A DNA stretch of 64,000 bases from Dehalococcoidia bacterium (GTDB taxonomy: Bacteria > Chloroflexota > Dehalococcoidia > Lucifugimonadales > UBA3495), in assembly GCA_965204905.1 (NCBI GenBank), contig OZ242042.1, forward strand, positions 3,382,153-3,446,152, written 5' to 3'. The stretch's first letter is position 1. The number at the start of each line of letters is the position of its first letter. This document shows, one piece after another, positions 18,779 to 40,160 of the stretch. The notes under the pieces are model-generated. The model saw only the letters and a list, made by a program, of their open reading frames with translations. It made no database searches and was not told the DNA's origin. Both the position numbers and the translations under genes were made by a program.

Positions 18779-19022
18779 GGATCAAACCTCGAAATCCAGA
18801 TTTATTTAAGATTGTACCCCAACTTCCCTGCTAAAAGGTTTCATATTTATTTCAAACCGCGCCAAGACTCCCACGAAGCACGCAACTGCCGCGTGTCAAT
18901 CATACCGCAGCGGAAGATACGGCGTCCACCAAAGCACCATCGCGCAGCAGCGCTTCTCCCTTGCCGATTTTCCGCACGGTGGGCTATACTGATTCGCAGT
19001 TTTTTAGGCGGGCGTGAGCGTA

Positions 19023-20102
19023 ATGGCCGACATTTTCGATAAGTTGCAGCCCATTGTGGAGCGGTATCGCGCCATCGAAACCGAGATGGCCCAACCCGAG
19101 GTTGCCGCCGATTACGCTCGTTTGGGCGAACTGAATCGCGAACGCTCCGGCCTCGAAGACCTGGTTGGCATCGACGTGGAGCATCGCAAGCTGGCCGAGG
19201 AGCAGGCCGACCTGCGCGCGCTCATCACCGAGGGCGGCGACCCCGAACTGGTCGAAATGGCCCAGCTCGAACTGGAGGATGTGGAAACCCGTCTCTCCGA
19301 CCTCGCCCAGCGGCTGCGCATCGCCCTCCTGCCTAAGGACCCCAACGACGAGCGCGACGTAATCGTCGAGATCCACGCCGCCGCCGGCGGTCAGGAAGCT
19401 TCACTGTTCGCCTCCGATCTCTACCGCATGTACCAGCGCTATGCTCAGGAGCAGGGCTGGAGCGTCGATATCCTGGATTCCAACCCGTCCGACCTGGGCG
19501 GGTTCAGCCGCATCGCGTTCTCCGTCGATGGCCGCAACGCCTTCAGCAAGCTCAAGTTCGAGGCCGGCGTCCATCGCGTCCAGCGCGTCCCCGAAACCGA
19601 GGCGCAGGGCCGCATCCACACCTCAACCGCCACGGTGGCCGTACTGCCCCAGGCCGATGAAGTCGAGGTCAACATCAAAGAAGACGACCTCCGCATCGAC
19701 ATCTTCCACGCCGGCGGACACGGCGGGCAAAACGTCAACAAGGTCGCCACCGCCGTGCGCATCGTCCACGAGCCTACCGGCATCATGGTCGTCTGTCAGG
19801 ACGAACGCTCGCAGTACAAGAACAAGTCCAAGGCCATGACCATCCTGCGCAGCCGGCTCTACTCCGCCGAGCAGGAGCGCCACCAGGCCGAGATCTCCAG
19901 CAACCGCAAAGCCCAGATCGGCAGCGGCGACCGCAGCGAGAAAATCCGCACCTACAACTACCCCCAGGATCGCATCACCGACCACCGCATCAGCCAGTCC
20001 ATCCACGGGATGCAGCGCCTCATGGACGGTGGCCTCAACGATATTATCGACCGCCTCATCGCCGACGACCAGGAGCGTGGTCTGGCCGCCATCTCATCGT
20101 GA
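19023..20102 (+). CDS. prfA: Peptide chain release factor 1
   Basis: GVHRVQRVPETE (PxT-type), GGQNVNK, RTYNYPQDRITDHR; followed by prmC. Confidence 0.93.
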   Translation: MADIFDKLQPIVERYRAIETEMAQPEVAADYARLGELNRERSGLEDLVGIDVEHRKLAEEQADLRALITEGGDPELVEMAQLELEDVETRLSDLAQRLRIALLPKDPNDERDVIVEIHAAAGGQEASLFASDLYRMYQRYAQEQGWSVDILDSNPSDLGGFSRIAFSVDGRNAFSKLKFEAGVHRVQRVPETEAQGRIHTSTATVAVLPQADEVEVNIKEDDLRIDIFHAGGHGGQNVNKVATAVRIVHEPTGIMVVCQDERSQYKNKSKAMTILRSRLYSAEQERHQAEISSNRKAQIGSGDRSEKIRTYNYPQDRITDHRISQSIHGMQRLMDGGLNDIIDRLIADDQERGLAAISS

Positions 20103-20106
20103 CCTG

Positions 20107-20146
20107 TCCCCTCTCCCTTGATGGGAGAGGGCTAGGGTGAGGGTGA
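20107..20146 (+). repeat. REP-like element, CCCCTCTCCC...GGGAGAGGG.TAGGGTGAGGG family
   Basis: tcccctctcccttgatgggagagggctagggtgagggtga; an inverted copy lies at 36378-36417. Confidence 0.8.
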
Positions 20147-20176
20147 TCCCAGACCTCTGCCGCTTCCCCATCCTTC

Positions 20177-21049
20177 ATGCCCAGCCTACGCGACGTAATC
20201 CAGGCCACCCACCGCACACTGGAATCGGCCGGCATCCCCGATGCCCGGCTGGAGGCCGAAGTCATGGTGATGGACGTCATGCGGATGCCCCGCCAGGCCA
20301 TCTTCGCCGAGCAGGAATCCCAGGTCGGACCCCAGCAGGAGGCCCAACTCGCTGCCATCGTGGAGCGACGCCTTGCCCGCGAGCCTCTGGCCTACATCCT
20401 CAACTACCGCGAGTTCTACGGCGTCAACCTGCTGGTCAACCCGGACGTGCTCATCCCGCGCCCGGAAACCGAAACCCTGGTAGAACACGCCCTGTTCATG
20501 GCGCTCATGGGCATGGAGAGCCGCGAGTTGGTCATCGCCGATGTTGGCACCGGCACCGGCGCCATCGCCGTCAACCTCGCCATCCACCTGCCCGCCGCCC
20601 GCATCTACGCCAGCGACGCCTTTGATCCCACGCTGGACGTGGCCGCCTACAACGTGCGGATGCACAACGTCGCCGACCGCGTCACCCTCCTCAAGGGCGA
20701 CCTGCTGGAATCCCTGCCGGAACCCGTGGACGTGATCGCCGCCAACCTGCCCTACCTGCCCACCGACCGCATACCCACGCTACAGCCGGAAATCCAGTGG
20801 GAGCCGGTGGTGGCCCTGGACGGCGGCCCCGACGGTCTCGACCACGTCCGCCGCCTGATCGCCCAGGCCGCCGAGCCGGACCGACTCAAACCCCACGGCG
20901 TCATCCTGCTGGAAATGGACCCGGAGCAGATGGACGAAGCCCGACGCCTGGCATCGGAAACGTTCCCCAACGCCGAAATCACCGTGGAGCCTGATCTATC
21001 CGGCCGCGACCGAGTGCTATCCGTCAGCCTCGCCGGCGGGTACGACTGA
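20177..21049 (+). CDS. prmC: Release factor glutamine methyltransferase
   Basis: VLIPRPETE, DVGTGTG, ANLPY, EPVVALDGGPDGL; downstream of prfA. Confidence 0.93.
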   Translation: MPSLRDVIQATHRTLESAGIPDARLEAEVMVMDVMRMPRQAIFAEQESQVGPQQEAQLAAIVERRLAREPLAYILNYREFYGVNLLVNPDVLIPRPETETLVEHALFMALMGMESRELVIADVGTGTGAIAVNLAIHLPAARIYASDAFDPTLDVAAYNVRMHNVADRVTLLKGDLLESLPEPVDVIAANLPYLPTDRIPTLQPEIQWEPVVALDGGPDGLDHVRRLIAQAAEPDRLKPHGVILLEMDPEQMDEARRLASETFPNAEITVEPDLSGRDRVLSVSLAGGYD

Positions 21050-21050
21050 A

Positions 21051-21497
21051 TCACCCAATGGCCCGGTTGCTCTGGAGCAGCCAGTTGGCATCCAGTTCCA
21101 GGTCATCGCGGCAGATCTTGATGAAGTCGCCCACGTCGCCGATGTAAGGAGCCTCTCCGCGGCAGCGCCGCAGATACTCCACCACCACCGCCAGGTTCAT
21201 CGCGCCGTTGGCGTCCACGAACGGCGATTCCTGCGCCTCGGCCGCCTCGGTCAACTCCCATCGGCCCGGGCCGGTTCCCTGGTTGTTGAACCAGTCCCGT
21301 TTCAGCACTCCGTCAACGTCTGGTTTCCGGTCTCCCATCGCCAGTTCCACCGCCTGCCACAGTTGGGCGCGCCGTATTGGCTCACCGCGGGTGACCAGCA
21401 CGTCGCGAATGATCTTGCTCGCCATCAGCGTGATGTTGTCGTCGAAGCGGACGGCATAGTCTGAATCGGCATTAGTATCAACGGTAGGGGTTGCCAT
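21051..21497 (-). CDS. Hypothetical protein (148 aa)
   Basis: ATG 21497 with RBS ggag; no family recognised. Confidence 0.6.
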   Translation of the reverse strand: MATPTVDTNADSDYAVRFDDNITLMASKIIRDVLVTRGEPIRRAQLWQAVELAMGDRKPDVDGVLKRDWFNNQGTGPGRWELTEAAEAQESPFVDANGAMNLAVVVEYLRRCRGEAPYIGDVGDFIKICRDDLELDANWLLQSNRAIG

Positions 21498-21593
21498 GTG
21501 TTCTCCTGGGGTTGGGGTGAAGCCTTCATAGTGATGCGCACTGCCGTTGCGCATCACTATCATCAATTATGTTGCCCGATGGCGCGGGCGCCG

Positions 21594-23117
21594 TCAAGAC
21601 AACCCCGTGATCTCCAGCGTCCGTACCTCATCGGCCTCAAAATCCGCCACGCGGATGGCGTGGTTGTTAGTGTCCGCGATGTAGAGCAGCGGCTGCCGGC
21701 CATTCTCGAAAACGGCGAAACTCAGGCCGCTGGGTTCGCTGAACGTCGCCAGCCTGCCCGCGCCGTCGTGGAGGCCCATCGCGCCGGAACCCAACACCGT
21801 CTGCACCGAGCGCATGATCGGCAGCACCTTCTTGATCTTGTGGTTGTAGGTATCGGCGATGAACAGCTCGCCTTCGTGCCACTCGATACCGATGGGATGC
21901 TGCAACCGGACGTTGTGCTCCACACCGTCCCGGTCGCCGAACGCAAACAGGTCGATACCCACCAGCGTCGCCACGCGGCCGGTCACCGGGTCAATGCCGG
22001 CGCTGCGCACGCTGCTGGTCTCGGAGTCCGCGAAGTACAGGATCGGACTGCCGCCCCGGTCGCTGCCCACCACGATGCCGCTGGGCTGGGCCAGCGTCGC
22101 CTGGGCCAACGGCCCGTTGTCGATGTTCTCGCCGCCGGTGCCGGCATGGGGGCATACCATCCCGTCGGACAGCGACAGCCGCCATAGCTGGTGAGTGCCG
22201 GCCATGGCGATGTACAGCACGCCCTCATGATGCGTCAGGTCCCACGGGCTGCTCAGCGCGATCTGCGTTCCCGGGCCGGACGCCCGGCGGTCGTGTCCCT
22301 GCTGCCCCGTGCCGGCAATGGTATCCACCGTGCCGGCGGCAAGGTTCACACGGCGGATGGCGTGGTTCTCGGTGTCGGCCACGTACAGCGTATCCCCCAC
22401 CAACTCCATACCCTGCGGATGGTTGAACGCGGCGTTGGCATAGTCGCCGTCCGCGAAGTCCTCAGCTCCCGACCCGATCACGGCCTGCGTCTGGCCGTCT
22501 AGGTCCGTTACCACAATCCGGTTGTGATTGGTGTCCGCAATGAACAGACGGTTGCCCGGCCCGTCGGCGAGCACCTTGCCGGGAAAAGCCAGCGCGGTTT
22601 CCTCAACGGCCTCCGGCGTAAGGCCCAGATCACGGCGGTCGATCAGCCCCTGCCCGTCAAACTCGGCGACCATCCGCCCGATCAGATCATCAAAGGCTTC
22701 GTAGGGCAGCTCGCCCTCGTGCTTGCCGATTACCTTGCCCTCGGGGTCAACGAACATCAGCGTGGGCCAGGCGCGACAGGCGTACTGCCGCCACACCTCG
22801 AACTCGGCATCGTTGACGATGGGATGTTTCAGCTCGTAGCGTTGGGCGGCCAGCAGCACGTTGTCGGCGTACTTCTCGTTGGGGAACTTGGCGGAGTGGA
22901 CCCCGATGACCACCAGCTCGTCCGCGTACTTCTCTTCCATTTTCCGCAACTGCGGAAACACATGGACGCAGTTGATTCAACAGTAGGTCCAGAAGTCCAG
23001 GATCACCACCTTGCCGCGCAGGTCGGCCATGCTCAGGGGCCGGTCGGTGTTGATCCATTCGACGCTGTCAGGGAAATCCGGCGCGTTCACCGTGCCGGCG
23101 AAAGACTGGGTGGCCAT
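21594..23117 (-). CDS. Thioredoxin-like + NHL-repeat protein (NHLRC2-like), probable selenoprotein (Sec47, TGA at 22977-22979)
   Basis: ggagg-ATG at 23117 reads MATQSFAG...[32 protein letters not shown] in frame with the tracked 21594..22961 ORF. The TGA sits at the second Cys of the family motif DFWTYCCINC. Confidence 0.88.
22937..22965 (-). promoter_or_regulatory. Bacterial SECIS-like hairpin
   Basis: Starts 11 nt after the UGA: CCAU-(GUG bulge)-UUUCCGC-[AGUU]-GCGGAAA-AUGG, with G at loop position 2. Confidence 0.75.
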
Positions 23118-23146
23118 GGGTTAAGCCTCCATTTTCAAATTAGACC

Positions 23147-23231: not shown

Positions 23232-24032
23232 CTAATCGCCGCGTTGTTGGCGCACTTCGCGGGCGCGGTCGATGATGCGTTGCGCGTCGGCAACGGTTCG
23301 CGCCCGGTAGTCGGGCAAGTCGGTTAACCGGGGATGTCGGGGTGGTCCATACACCTGCTCACCGGCGTATTGGGTGTAGACGTCGGGCGACACGCCGAGG
23401 GCATATTCCCGCAGTTCCGAGTCGATTCGCCTGATGTGTCCCAGCAGGTGCCCGATATTGTGGGTGCGTCGGTAGCTCGCCCTGTGGGCTTCCAACAAGG
23501 CTTTCATGGCGTGTTCTAACGTGTTCTGCGCCTGTTGACCAATCGCTAAATCGGCTGCGTTGTTTTCCGCGCCTAATTCGAACATATACAGGTGCGCTTC
23601 AGCATGGCGCAGCCGTTCGTCGTAAGGACTCCAATCGTACTCACACTCGGTTGCCCCATCTTCGTAGCACGAGGAATCGCGCTGATTAGGGTCTTGCGAC
23701 ATGAACACGCCATCCTTCACAGCATTGGTTTCCAGGCTGTTGACGTAGCGACGGTTGTGCCGGAACTCGTCCAGAGTGCGCCAGACCAACTGCACTGGCA
23801 CTTCTCGACCGTAAGCCGAGCGAACTACGCTCTCGACCCACTCGTTAACCGGCCCTTGGGATTCGTCGTCCGGGGCCGTATCACCAAGCAGCATGATGTC
23901 GATGTCCGACCGGTACTCTTCGTAGTCTCCCCGCGCGCGGGAACCGAACAGGATTGTGGCCAACGGTCGTTCCCGTTCGTGCACGGCTTGCGCCACGCTC
24001 AGCGCGCGCGGGTCGCAAGTAGCGGCAGTCAT
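23232..24032 (-). CDS. Fused MNT-HEPN protein, copy 2
   Basis: CDPRAL...ILFGSRARGDYEEYRSDIDI, EHAMKALL...THNIGHLL; colinear with 15628-16437. Confidence 0.8.
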   Translation of the reverse strand: MTAATCDPRALSVAQAVHERERPLATILFGSRARGDYEEYRSDIDIMLLGDTAPDDESQGPVNEWVESVVRSAYGREVPVQLVWRTLDEFRHNRRYVNSLETNAVKDGVFMSQDPNQRDSSCYEDGATECEYDWSPYDERLRHAEAHLYMFELGAENNAADLAIGQQAQNTLEHAMKALLEAHRASYRRTHNIGHLLGHIRRIDSELREYALGVSPDVYTQYAGEQVYGPPRHPRLTDLPDYRARTVADAQRIIDRAREVRQQRGD

Positions 24033-25382: not shown

Positions 25383-25733
25383 CTACGCCATCGGTTCCAG
25401 CAAGCCGACGAACCGCTCTACTACATCCAATGCATCGGCGACATCCGCAGCTGAGTCAACGTTCTCGTAAAAGTTGTAATGCAGGTGATTGGCGGCCCGT
25501 AAAAGCCGGGTCAGGCCCATGCTGGGATTTTCGTCGGTCAAACGCCGCACCACCACCCAGATATGCCGGTGGGTCTTGTGTTCCCAGCCTCTGCGGTCGG
25601 CGATGGCCTTGACTATCTGGGCAGTGGCACCCCAGCCTTTTTCGGAAGCCTGCCTGAGGTCGCCCGCCGCCAGTTCCGCCCTGGCCTGCGCCAGCAACTG
25701 CCGGCTTGCCGCTTGGTAAGTCTGCGTCGTCAC
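25383..25733 (-). CDS. PaREP1-family (HEPN-like) protein
   Basis: AELAAGDLRQASEKGWGA...ANHLHYNFYE; GTG start with ggagg. Confidence 0.75.
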   Translation of the reverse strand: MTTQTYQAASRQLLAQARAELAAGDLRQASEKGWGATAQIVKAIADRRGWEHKTHRHIWVVVRRLTDENPSMGLTRLLRAANHLHYNFYENVDSAADVADALDVVERFVGLLEPMA

Positions 25734-26149
25734 GTGTCCTCCGTAACCGTCTGGCAGACAAACATTCCGCGTTGGTATGCCATTGATAGGATTGTAGCAC
25801 ACCGCCCCATCAGCCCACGGCCCAATGACACTTCCACCCTTGCCCACACCCTCCATCCATCCTTACCATTTAACTAGCCAACCACCCAACTCACGCTCAT
25901 GGTGCGGTATGTCCGCCTCTGGCGAGTCGAACCACTAGCCTGTCCAATGTCCAACTCCAATCACCGCTCCCCCAAACCCTCCCACTGGCCCGCCAAAACC
26001 GTCAATATCACCCTCAAAACTGCCCGCGCCACCCCCATTTACCCCCGCGTCGCACCCTGCCGCCCTACTCAAATGACCAGAAATGAGCGGAAATGAGCGG
26101 GATTTCGCCAAAATCGCCACATTCAGACCATCAACCCCGAGGCATTCCC

Positions 26150-37460: not shown

Positions 37461-40160
37461 ATGACGCCCGAACATTTCATCGCAACTTGGGACAATACCA
37501 CTCTGAACGAGGAGCAGGGCGCGCAGTCCTGGTTCAACGACCTTTGCGACCTCATCGGCCATCCCAAGCCCCTGGGCGATCTTAACGGCCTGACCTATGC
37601 CTTTGAACATCGCGTCGAAACGGGCAAGGCCGACGCCTACTACGAAAATCATTTCGGCTGGGAGTTCAAGACCCACGAGGGGCAGTTGGACGAGGCCATG
37701 CGCCAGGTGCTTGGCTATTCCATGTACCTGAAAACGCCGCCCCTGCTGGTGGTGTCCGCCTTCAACGTCATCCGCATCCGCACCAACTTTCCCGGCATGG
37801 AAAGCGTACAGCGGGAAATCCGCATCGCCGACCTCGCGGAACCGGACACCCTGGCCGTCGTCCAGCGGATTTTCACCGATCCGGACTGGTTCAACACCGG
37901 CAGGAGCCGCGACGACGTCACCAGGGAAACCGCCGCCCTGTTCCAGGCGGTGAGCAACGACATGGCCCGTTCGGGCTACGGCACTGATCCGTCAAGAATC
38001 CGAGAACTGGCGCAGTACCTCAACCAGATCATATTCTGCCTGTACGCCGAGGACGCCGGGCTGCTGCCCGACGGCGCGTTCACCGGCCTGGTGGTGAACC
38101 AGCGGCGGGAACCGGATCGATTCCGGCAGGGCGCGCGGACACTGTTCGCCGAAATGGATCACGGCGGCCTGTTCGGCCCACAGACCATTGAGCATTTCAA
38201 CGGCGAACTGTTCGCCCACGTTCCCGACGTGACGCTGAACACCGCCGCGCTGGAAAGGCTGGCGGAAGCCGCGACCAAGAACTGGAGCAACATCGAGCCG
38301 TCCATATTCGGCACACTGTTTGAGCGCGCGCTGGGTCTCACCGAGGAACGCGCACCGCTGGGCGCGCACTACACCGGCGAGGCCGACATCCGTCGCGTGG
38401 TTCAGCCGGTCATCATGGACGAACTGCGCCGGGAGTGGGCGGCGGTCAGGGCGGAGGTTGAGGGGGTGGGGCATCTGGAGTCATTCCGCCGTCGCCTCGC
38501 CTCCGTAACCGTCCTCGACCCCGCCTGCGGCAGCGGCAACTTCCTCTACGTGGCCTTGCGCTCCCTGCTGGATTTGGAGCGGGAAGTGATTGACTTCGCC
38601 GCCGCCCGGGGCTGGGCCGACGTCGGCAGGACGCCGCTGGTGAACCCGGCCCAAATGATGGGCCTAGAGGTCAACGAGTACGCGGCGCAACTGGCGAAAA
38701 CCGCCCTGTGGATTGGCTATATCCAGTGGCATCAGGCCAACGGTTTTGCCTACACCAACCGCCCGATACTGGACAACATCGACGGCGTTGAATGTCGGGA
38801 CGCCGCCATTGTTCTCAACGACGCCGGCGAAACTACACGCAAAGCGCAATGGCCCGATGCCGATTACATCATCGGCAACCCGCCGTTTCTGGGCGCAAAG
38901 GATATGCTCACCGAGTTGGGCAACGACTACACCGCTCGTCTGCGCCGGACCTACGCCGCCGAACTGGACGGCGCGGTTGACCTGTGCTGCTACTGGTTTG
39001 AGCAGGCCCGAGCGCAGATTGCCGCGGGCAAGGCCAGGCGCGCCGGCCTGCTGGCGACGCAGGCGATACGGTTCAGCAGCAACCGCCGCACCCTGGAGCG
39101 CATCAAGGAAACCGGCGACATTTTCGCCGCCTACGACGACCTGGAATGGAAACCGGAGGAACCCGGCTCCGCCGCCGTCCACGTGTCCATCGTCTGCTTT
39201 GACGACGGCAGCGAAACCGCAAAAACGCTGAACGGCGGGCCGGCATCCGACATCGACACCCGCCTCACCGACGCTGTGCATCTGGACCGAGCGCAGCCAT
39301 TGCCACAGAACAACGGCATTTGCTTCAGGGGTATCGAGAAAGGCGGCCCACTCGACTTGACGCCGGAACAGGCGTCAATAATGCTGGCCGACAGCAACCC
39401 CAATGGCAAGCCCAACAGCGATGTCCTCAAACGCTACGTCATCGGCAGAGACCTTAACGGCAAGCCACAAGAACGTTGGCTGGTTGACTTTGGCGCTATG
39501 CCCGAATCAGATGCGAAACTATACAACTTGCCATACCAGCATTGTCTAAACTACGTAAAACCAGTTCGAGATAAGAATAAGCGCGAACATCGGAGATTGA
39601 ATTGGTGGTTACTTAACGATGCGACGCCAGCATTGGATGCGGCCCTTGCACCGTTAACGCGGTACATTGGCACCTGTCAGGTGTCCAAGCATCGCTGCTT
39701 CCAGTACATAGATGCCGACAATGCGCCGGATGTAACTATCGTCGCTTTTTGCCGCGAGGATGACTACTTTCTAGGGGTACTGGAAAGCCGTTTCCACAAG
39801 GCTTGGACTGCCGCCATTGGCACACAGTTGCGGGAAAAGGAATCGGGCCGGCGCTACATCATCAGCGAGTGCTTTGAGAAGTTCCCGTTTCCGAGTCCGA
39901 CGGAATCGCAGCGTCAGGCCGTAGCGCAGGCGGCGCGAACCCTGGACGAGCAGCGGCGCAACGTCTGCCAACCCAACGGCAGCTACCGCCGCTCGATGAC
40001 CAGCCTGTACAACGAAAACCCGCCGTGGCTGCAAACCGCCCACGCCGAGCTTGATGCCGCCGTAGCCGACGCCTACGGCTGGCCGGCCGACCTGGCGGAC
40101 GACGAAATACTGCGCCGTTTGGTGCGGCTGAACGTGAGCGGCGGGGCGGGGCGGCCGTAG
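37461..40160 (+). CDS. Type IIG/IIL (MmeI-like) fused restriction-modification enzyme
   Basis: N-terminal ADAY...GWEFK nuclease-like motif, VLDPACGSGNFL motif I, IGNPPF motif IV, C-terminal TRD (GVLESRFHKAW...FEKFPFP). Confidence 0.88.
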   Translation: MTPEHFIATWDNTTLNEEQGAQSWFNDLCDLIGHPKPLGDLNGLTYAFEHRVETGKADAYYENHFGWEFKTHEGQLDEAMRQVLGYSMYLKTPPLLVVSAFNVIRIRTNFPGMESVQREIRIADLAEPDTLAVVQRIFTDPDWFNTGRSRDDVTRETAALFQAVSNDMARSGYGTDPSRIRELAQYLNQIIFCLYAEDAGLLPDGAFTGLVVNQRREPDRFRQGARTLFAEMDHGGLFGPQTIEHFNGELFAHVPDVTLNTAALERLAEAATKNWSNIEPSIFGTLFERALGLTEERAPLGAHYTGEADIRRVVQPVIMDELRREWAAVRAEVEGVGHLESFRRRLASVTVLDPACGSGNFLYVALRSLLDLEREVIDFAAARGWADVGRTPLVNPAQMMGLEVNEYAAQLAKTALWIGYIQWHQANGFAYTNRPILDNIDGVECRDAAIVLNDAGETTRKAQWPDADYIIGNPPFLGAKDMLTELGNDYTARLRRTYAAELDGAVDLCCYWFEQARAQIAAGKARRAGLLATQAIRFSSNRRTLERIKETGDIFAAYDDLEWKPEEPGSAAVHVSIVCFDDGSETAKTLNGGPASDIDTRLTDAVHLDRAQPLPQNNGICFRGIEKGGPLDLTPEQASIMLADSNPNGKPNSDVLKRYVIGRDLNGKPQERWLVDFGAMPESDAKLYNLPYQHCLNYVKPVRDKNKREHRRLNWWLLNDATPALDAALAPLTRYIGTCQVSKHRCFQYIDADNAPDVTIVAFCREDDYFLGVLESRFHKAWTAAIGTQLREKESGRRYIISECFEKFPFPSPTESQRQAVAQAARTLDEQRRNVCQPNGSYRRSMTSLYNENPPWLQTAHAELDAAVADAYGWPADLADDEILRRLVRLNVSGGAGRP

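Follow-up and report, generated by a model that had tools for sequence, protein, structure and literature searches.

We analysed a stretch of 64,000 nucleotides from the genome of a Dehalococcoidia bacterium (GCA_965204905.1, contig OZ242042.1, positions 3,382,153 to 3,446,152; the whole stretch is referred to as the window) and found on its reverse strand a gene of the NHLRC2/SOQ1 family with an in-frame TGA at codon 47. This gene very probably encodes a cytoplasmic two-domain selenoprotein, in which UGA47 is decoded as selenocysteine (Sec) via SelB and a downstream hairpin, and in which Sec47 stands in for the attacking cysteine (Cys) of the family. Judged by sequence, there is hardly any doubt that the internal TGA encodes selenocysteine, placed at the active site. 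This decoding had already been proposed in a first-pass annotation of the window, and it is supported by a complete Sec machinery in the genome, by the alternation of Cys codons and TGA at the same alignment column and by a hairpin of the bacterial selenocysteine insertion sequence (bSECIS) type.

The reading frame begins at an ATG preceded by a GGAGG ribosome-binding sequence, runs through 46 sense codons that end in DFWTYC, meets the TGA and then stays open to the stop codon, which gives 507 residues when TGA is translated as U. The first-pass annotation had described all of these elements (GGAGG, ATG at 23117, 46 codons to DFWTYC, TGA at 22977-22979 and a length of 507 aa), and each was correct in the sequence. 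At this locus, the program-made list of open reading frames (ORFs) held only a 455-aa ORF with a GTG start (21594..22961) and a 46-aa ORF (22977..23117). This list and the translation through the TGA confirmed the earlier suggestion that the 455-aa ORF is a truncated version of the gene. Among 176 orthologues, the best-placed start was an ATG in 154, mostly located 42-50 codons ahead of the Sec/Cys column.

The same truncation was found in public records. Among the best 120 matches in the public protein collection, all but one Cys form covered at most 90% of the query, and nearly all close relatives among them were 442-456 aa long. Those that we fetched start just past the active site, for example with MFPQLRK. 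Names given to the truncated relatives include "alkyl hydroperoxide reductase" and "YncE". It had been predicted that standard pipelines would truncate this gene, and the public homologues of this length, from which the active site is missing, agree with that prediction.

The translated protein consists of a thioredoxin (Trx)-like domain followed by an NHL-repeat propeller. In Pfam, the Trx-like region (aa 13-138) matched Thioredoxin_8 (2e-14), AhpC-TSA (1.6e-10) and Redoxin (7.6e-8), and cut-offs were passed for PF00578 (41.5 bits versus 26) and PF08534 (32.7 bits versus 26.6). No NCBIfam model reached its cut-off for the 507-aa protein. The propeller alone matched the NHL domain of SOQ1 (7djm, aa 174-506, E 2e-78) and that of NHLRC2 (6g7w, E 6e-69). 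Because the N-terminus of the translation contains neither a signal peptide nor a hydrophobic stretch, the protein is presumably cytoplasmic.

Over nearly its whole length (aa 11-506), the protein could be aligned to Arabidopsis SOQ1 (7DJJ/7DJK), in its lumenal Trx-like/NHL region, at an E-value of 7e-128. Around the redox centre, the two proteins agree throughout DFWTYC[C/U]INC; they also share the WPT cis-Pro loop, and a six-bladed propeller follows. SOQ1 differs in having a Cys at the Sec position and in its own N-terminal HAD domain, transmembrane helix and C-terminal nDsbD-like domain, none of which is present in the bacterial protein. Human NHLRC2 (6GC1/6G7W), the protein of FINCA disease, aligns over aa 10-502 (E 6e-116), but its residue at the Sec position is Cys90, and a further beta-stranded domain is added at its C-terminus. 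In the structure of NHLRC2, for which no Sec form was described, the CCINC motif is found at the N-terminal end of helix alpha1, turned toward the cleft that is shared with the propeller, and the cis-proline is Pro163 (PMC6107167). The closest stand-alone structural relative is the C-terminal Trx-like domain of DipZ from M. tuberculosis (2HYX; aa 11-169, E 1.6e-23). This domain, in contrast, is the periplasmic part of a membrane electron transporter, has neither propeller nor Sec and carries the motif SCINC (PMC6107167). The first-pass annotation had named DFWTYCCINC as a motif of NHLRC2-type proteins; we saw it in the SOQ1 alignment, and NHLRC2 has CCINC. In the alignments, the UxxC lies on an intact TlpA/DipZ-type fold that adjoins the propeller, which is the arrangement that had been suggested from the sequence of the window.

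The C-terminal nDsbD-like domain with its Cys pair is missing from the protein: the alignment stops at residue 514 of the 667 residues of the SOQ1 chain, and the 171-aa ORF downstream of the gene showed no similarity to the C-terminal domain (CTD) of SOQ1 or NHLRC2. Most bacterial NHLRC2 homologues, including some from Chloroflexi, are likewise devoid of the poorly conserved CTD; they are probable orthologues and have no conserved gene neighbours (PMC6107167). As its CTD is missing in the same way, the protein belongs to this CTD-less bacterial subgroup. By its alignments, it is a CTD-less bacterial member of the NHLRC2/SOQ1 family and an orthologue-grade relative.

We searched whole genomes with stops read through and then located the query column in each locus by read-through blastp. 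Motif-based regular expressions had passed over about 20 loci whose motif varies and were dropped in favour of this column mapping. All 24 other genomes of the same genus yielded an orthologue, as did five other families of the order, and an in-frame TGA is present in every one of these orthologues. A sample of 400 genomes from the phylum yielded 82 further genomes with an orthologue; one TGA is found in most of these and no TGA in a minority. A scan of named genomes added 80 more loci. The column set comprised 176 orthologous loci (147 distinct proteins). At the Sec47 column, 127 of these loci have TGA, 49 have TGC or TGT, and no other codon was found, so that the Cys/TGA alternation for which the first-pass annotation had proposed to look is strict. 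Among the loci tallied, the motif was CUINC in 45, CUVNC in 18, GUINC in four and CUIDC in one, and the Cys forms carry CCINC, GCINC or GCVNC. The Sec47 column aligns with C431 of SOQ1, the second Cys of its CCINC and a member of the redox pair C431-C434.

A pseudogene, or an error of sequencing or assembly that turned TGC or TGT into TGA, would require the change of only one base. However, the same TGA was found in 127 loci (119 distinct proteins) of at least three phyla, in a frame that is otherwise intact and under purifying selection. Because these loci come from separate species genomes, a sequencing error is untenable, and we give this whole explanation practically no credence.

Alternatively, the TGA could be a genuine stop. 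The locus would then encode a 46-aa peptide and a separate propeller protein with a headless Trx domain, started from the GTG at 22961 or from a nearby ATG. This truncated form is the one given in the ORF list and in all close public records, and, as Sec decoding is never fully efficient, some termination product is probably made beside the full-length protein. Yet the separate product would be devoid of strand beta1 and of the whole CxxC of the Trx fold, and the homology to SOQ1 and NHLRC2 continues without a break through the TGA. Moreover, the frame is conserved over the 46 codons upstream, where variation is seen at third positions. Among 25 loci of the same genus, variable columns at codon positions 1/2/3 numbered 16/5/30 in the 40 codons upstream of the TGA versus 12/6/36 downstream. 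Since this variation by codon position matches that of the downstream part, the 40 upstream codons are translated in the same frame. In addition, the codon alternates with Cys codons only and is never TAA or TAG, whereas the terminal stop of the 127 Sec forms is TGA in 49, TAG in 41 and TAA in 37. Regular termination at codon 47 is thus very improbable.

The second line of evidence for Sec insertion at UGA47 is the hairpin downstream of it. In the RNAfold structure, pairing begins 11 nt past the UGA with CCAU/AUGG (plus a U:A pair), followed by a GUG bulge and a stem UUUCCGC/GCGGAAA that is closed by an AGUU loop. The 7-bp stem begins 18 nt and the loop 25 nt past the UGA. According to the published bSECIS model (PMC13188914 Fig. 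2), the loop has 3-9 nt, the upper stem has 4-16 bp, a G is found in the first two loop positions, the distance from UGA to loop is 16-37 nt and the minimum free energy (MFE) is at most -7.5 kcal/mol. The hairpin agrees with all of the published criteria i-iv through its 4-nt AGUU loop with G as second nucleotide, its 7-bp stem and its UGA-to-loop distance of 25 nt. Its MFE is -14.2 kcal/mol in the window and -9.3 kcal/mol where the 7-bp stem forms alone. The first-pass annotation had stated that bacterial SECIS hairpins lie just 3' of the UGA with a G early in the loop, and the hairpin here agrees with this. It had also reported an 11-bp stem with a 3-nt bulge and an AGUU loop. RNAfold reproduced this fold, but as a functional SECIS the proposal holds for the 7-bp core only: the lower 4-5 bp are not kept outside the closest relatives of the window, and the folds of relatives differ below this core. 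With conservation limited to the 7-bp upper stem and the loop, the whole 11-bp bulged stem was rejected as the SECIS.

The 7-bp stem and the loop are kept with covariation in Sec forms of three phyla. In an alignment of 28 diverse Sec-form sequences, 94.9% of the cells were paired, and none of 500 shuffles reached the observed score. Compensatory changes were found in four of the seven stem pairs (21 double-change cells), for example from U-A to C-G or G-C, and a G-C to C-G exchange was found in the stem of the LGK variants. As a control, the partner strand was slid by 1-3 nt, upon which pairing fell to 35-68%. Furthermore, third positions varied within the genus in only one of the six hairpin codons, compared to six of the six codons just upstream and 36 of 40 downstream; these frozen third positions therefore show selection on the RNA. 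The mean MFE was -12.7 kcal/mol for Sec forms versus -8.7 kcal/mol for Cys forms (p = 2e-4). Where Sec forms have PQLR(K/R), Cys forms have PDLK(K/R)LE or another sequence, and the hairpin is missing in nearly all of the Cys forms that we read. Cys forms of about nine other phyla have PDLKK and no hairpin.

The genome (4.23 Mb, 62% GC, two contigs) encodes the machinery that such decoding needs. The first-pass annotation had named selA, selB, selD and the tRNA-Sec as a check, and the set is complete. One tRNA-Sec was found both with ARAGORN and with Rfam (RF01852, 66.4 bits versus a gathering score of 47), and selD (TIGR00476, 370 bits), selB (365 bits) and selA (557 bits) likewise scored above curated cut-offs. 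The selD gene, located outside the window (G000:C1:2053185-2054102), itself encodes a selenoprotein; a TGA lies in frame within its N-terminal motif LSHCAG-U-AAKL (HCAGUAAK). Across genomes, selA was present in 58 of the 59 that have the TGA form; the exception is a metagenome-assembled genome (MAG) of 160 contigs and 93% completeness.

Reassignment of UGA as a sense codon was rejected. TGA is the commonest ordinary stop, ending 813 of the 2052 ATG-ORFs of at least 300 aa, and release factor 2 (RF2) was found at 448 bits versus a cut-off of 370; the genetic code is therefore standard. These two findings also bear on the possibility that the UGA is read through by a tRNA other than tRNA-Sec, either a near-cognate Trp or Cys tRNA or one of a reassigned code, with the hairpin merely slowing termination. 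It is known in general that downstream RNA structures can stimulate stop-codon read-through. However, TGA serves as the commonest normal stop in the presence of RF2, the site coincides exactly with the column of the redox Cys, both the G in the hairpin loop and the spacing agree with the bSECIS model, and the Sec machinery is complete and its selA accompanies nearly every TGA form. Such read-through is hardly to be expected here, and Sec insertion remains our reading of UGA47.

On this basis, we propose the following mechanism. SelB with Sec-tRNA(Sec) would bind the UUUCCGC-AGUU-GCGGAAA hairpin, and Sec would be put in at UGA47 instead of termination. Sec47 would replace the attacking Cys of the CxxC (C431 in SOQ1, C90 in NHLRC2), and Cys50 would be the resolving residue. 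In SOQ1, the redox pair C431-C434 (in C430-C431-I-N-C434) has a midpoint potential (Em) of -274 mV, and this Trx-like pair passes electrons to a Cys pair of the CTD, which has methionine sulfoxide reductase (Msr) activity toward the lipocalin LCNP (bioRxiv 10.1101/2024.11.01.621559). In the bacterial protein, the selenolate of Sec47 would attack an oxidised substrate held in the cleft that the Trx-like domain forms with the propeller, and a Sec47-Cys50 selenenylsulfide would form, to be re-reduced presumably via the thioredoxin system of the cell. Because the C-terminal relay domain is missing, the enzyme would either act on its substrate directly or hand electrons to a separate partner.

Several points weigh against this reading. 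The fold of the hairpin taken alone is not significant (-19 kcal/mol over 66 nt, z = -1.9, matched by 9 of 200 shuffles), and for this reason we relied on the comparative evidence, which raises the hairpin above the level of chance. The co-occurrence with selA fits Sec decoding but discriminates weakly, since selA was also found in 17 of 20 genomes with the Cys form. In addition, one locus from a Chthonomonadia MAG (L199, JBGPOG010000029.1) also carries TGA at this column (DFWTFG-U-VNC), yet a SECIS hairpin is missing; its downstream sequence resembles that of Cys forms (IIPDLKRLE), with an MFE of -5.7 kcal/mol. At this locus, the SECIS could be of another type, or the TGA could have arisen by a fresh nonsense mutation or by an error in assembly. 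The case for selenium at the UGA is built on sequence and comparative evidence. As to catalysis, neither NHLRC2 nor SOQ1 showed activity when assayed for insulin reduction (PMC6107167; bioRxiv 10.1101/2024.11.01.621559). The catalytic scheme is drawn by analogy, and the bacterial protein is without the CTD that carries the Msr activity of SOQ1.

The Sec form is predominant in Chloroflexota and was also found in Methylomirabilota/Rokubacteria (four loci) and Fervidibacter (two loci), where the CCGC-AGUU-GCGG core is shared. Among named relatives, uncultured Chloroflexota/Dehalococcoidia MAGs are nearest, with SAR202, Lake Baikal and ALOHA Dehalococcoidia at about 60-65% identity. Cys forms are carried by Acidobacteriota, Planctomycetota (anammox), Verrucomicrobiota, Latescibacterota, Zixibacteria, Binatia and some Chloroflexota. 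On a FastTree phylogeny of the 147 proteins, nine Sec/Cys changes were needed, at least five of which are forced by well-supported branches. The Sec and Cys labels are strongly clustered on this tree, as none of 500 shuffles gave so low a number. Repeated exchange between Sec and Cys is typical of bacterial selenoproteins.

Two single cases were observed beside this distribution. A public protein of 497 aa with 58% identity (P0111) is a Cys form with CCINC, yet it has MHVFPQLRK, the peptide that is imposed by the SECIS hairpin; from its sequence, it looks like a recent Sec-to-Cys conversion. In one Chloroflexota genome (G259), two Sec-form copies with identical scores lie on opposite strands 5 kb apart (C157:31139-32608 and 37861-39330), and this pair reflects either a duplication with inversion or an artefact of assembly.

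Full-text literature searches gave nothing relevant on an NHLRC2 or SOQ1 with selenocysteine, or on a selenoprotein with NHL repeats. Likewise, NHL, NHLRC2, SOQ1, propeller and DipZ are unmentioned in the bacterial selenoproteome of 2006, the Global Ocean Sampling (GOS) study of 2008, the ISME J survey of 2016, deep-Sep of 2025 and the catalogue review of 2026. The catalogued Prx-like/Redoxin UxxC selenoproteins (PF00578/PF08534) resemble the protein in having a UxxC on a TlpA/redoxin-type fold and in SelB/bSECIS decoding. The 2026 catalogue gives WP_010940744.1, HEU0032618.1 and MGB1650493.1 as representatives, and an NHL domain is mentioned in none of the texts. Generic "redoxin UxxC" entries of the catalogue could hide the family, with short metagenomic reads of the Trx-like domain filed there. 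The family assignment thus appears not to be catalogued by name. The mechanism of Sec decoding itself is conventional, and in this respect the protein is an ordinary kind of bacterial selenoprotein.

Sec is used almost solely at catalytic redox positions, and its occurrence at this column would therefore mark Cys90 of NHLRC2 and Cys431 of SOQ1 as the catalytic nucleophile. Taken as a whole, we slightly favour the view that the Sec-form NHLRC2/SOQ1 proteins are a selenoprotein family unnamed in the literature, which would be predominant across Chloroflexota (SAR202, other Dehalococcoidia and Anaerolineae-type) and shared with Methylomirabilota and Fervidibacter via one homologous SECIS. In the same view, the assignment of the nucleophile would hold, and the CTD-less enzyme would be a stand-alone reductase with its substrate in the Trx-propeller cleft.

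An annotation rule specific to this family would repair truncated records across more than 100 genomes. The predicted protein adds a widespread selenoprotein to SAR202 and to other marine, sponge-associated and soil Chloroflexota. That Cys has repeatedly been exchanged for Sec at one and the same residue is strong evidence, supplied by nature, for the CxxC as a working redox catalyst. The exchange also points to a more reactive bacterial enzyme for substrate searches in a family in which the biochemical function of NHLRC2 is undefined and a function for SOQ1 was put forward only lately.

Table 1. Position of the predicted selenoprotein gene, its parts and the neighbouring genes in the window.
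Feature	Coordinates	Strand	Remarks
Complete gene of the predicted selenoprotein	21594..23117	-	507 codons plus TGA stop at 21596-21594; Trx-like domain and NHL beta-propeller
Shine-Dalgarno sequence GGAGG	23126..23130	-	8 nt 5' of the ATG at 23117-23115; read directly in the sequence
In-frame UGA, predicted Sec47	22977..22979	-	Attacking residue, at the N-terminal end of the UxxC redox centre
Redox motif C46-U47-I48-N49-C50	22968..22982	-	Counterpart of CC(I/V)NC in the NHLRC2/SOQ1 family
Truncated 455-aa GTG ORF	21594..22961	-	Version given by ORF finder and public pipelines in place of the real gene
Conserved bSECIS core	22941..22958	-	UUUCCGC (22958-22952), loop AGUU (22951-22948), GCGGAAA (22947-22941)
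Extended hairpin	22936..22966	-	Lower stem UCCAU (22966-22962)/AUGGA (22940-22936), GUG bulge 22961-22959; RNAfold MFE structure
Trx-like (TlpA/ResA/DipZ-type) domain, aa ~13-145	22683..23081	-	cis-Pro loop A-W-P-T kept; Pfam and DipZ match
Six-bladed NHL-repeat beta-propeller, aa ~175-506	21600..22595	-	Pfam NHL 4.4e-19; SOQ1/NHLRC2 NHL domains
171-aa ORF	21051-21566	-	28 nt downstream of the selenoprotein stop; syntenic within the genus only, 55-86% identity
Fused nucleotidyltransferase and HEPN, 266 aa (MNT/HEPN-type, toxin-antitoxin-like)	23232-24032	-	Immediately upstream; syntenic in ~18 genus relatives
PaREP1-family gene	25383-25856
prfA (RF1; PCRF and RF-1 domains) and prmC (release-factor methyltransferase)	19014-21049	+	Converge on the selenoprotein gene; prmC syntenic across the order
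SBP56 (56-kDa selenium-binding protein/methanethiol-oxidase family), 480 aa	26573-28015	+	623 bits; 3.5 kb away

The genes around the locus are listed in Table 1. The SBP56 gene was considered as a selenium link to the selenoprotein gene and rejected: SBP56 proteins are enzymes of the methanethiol-oxidase type, and nothing was found that ties the two genes together in function. None of the neighbouring genes gives a functional link, which matches the published lack of conserved neighbours (PMC6107167). The 171-aa ORF downstream of the selenoprotein gene had no match in Pfam or the PDB. It may be co-transcribed with the selenoprotein gene, and its real start is probably an internal ATG (MATPTVD...).

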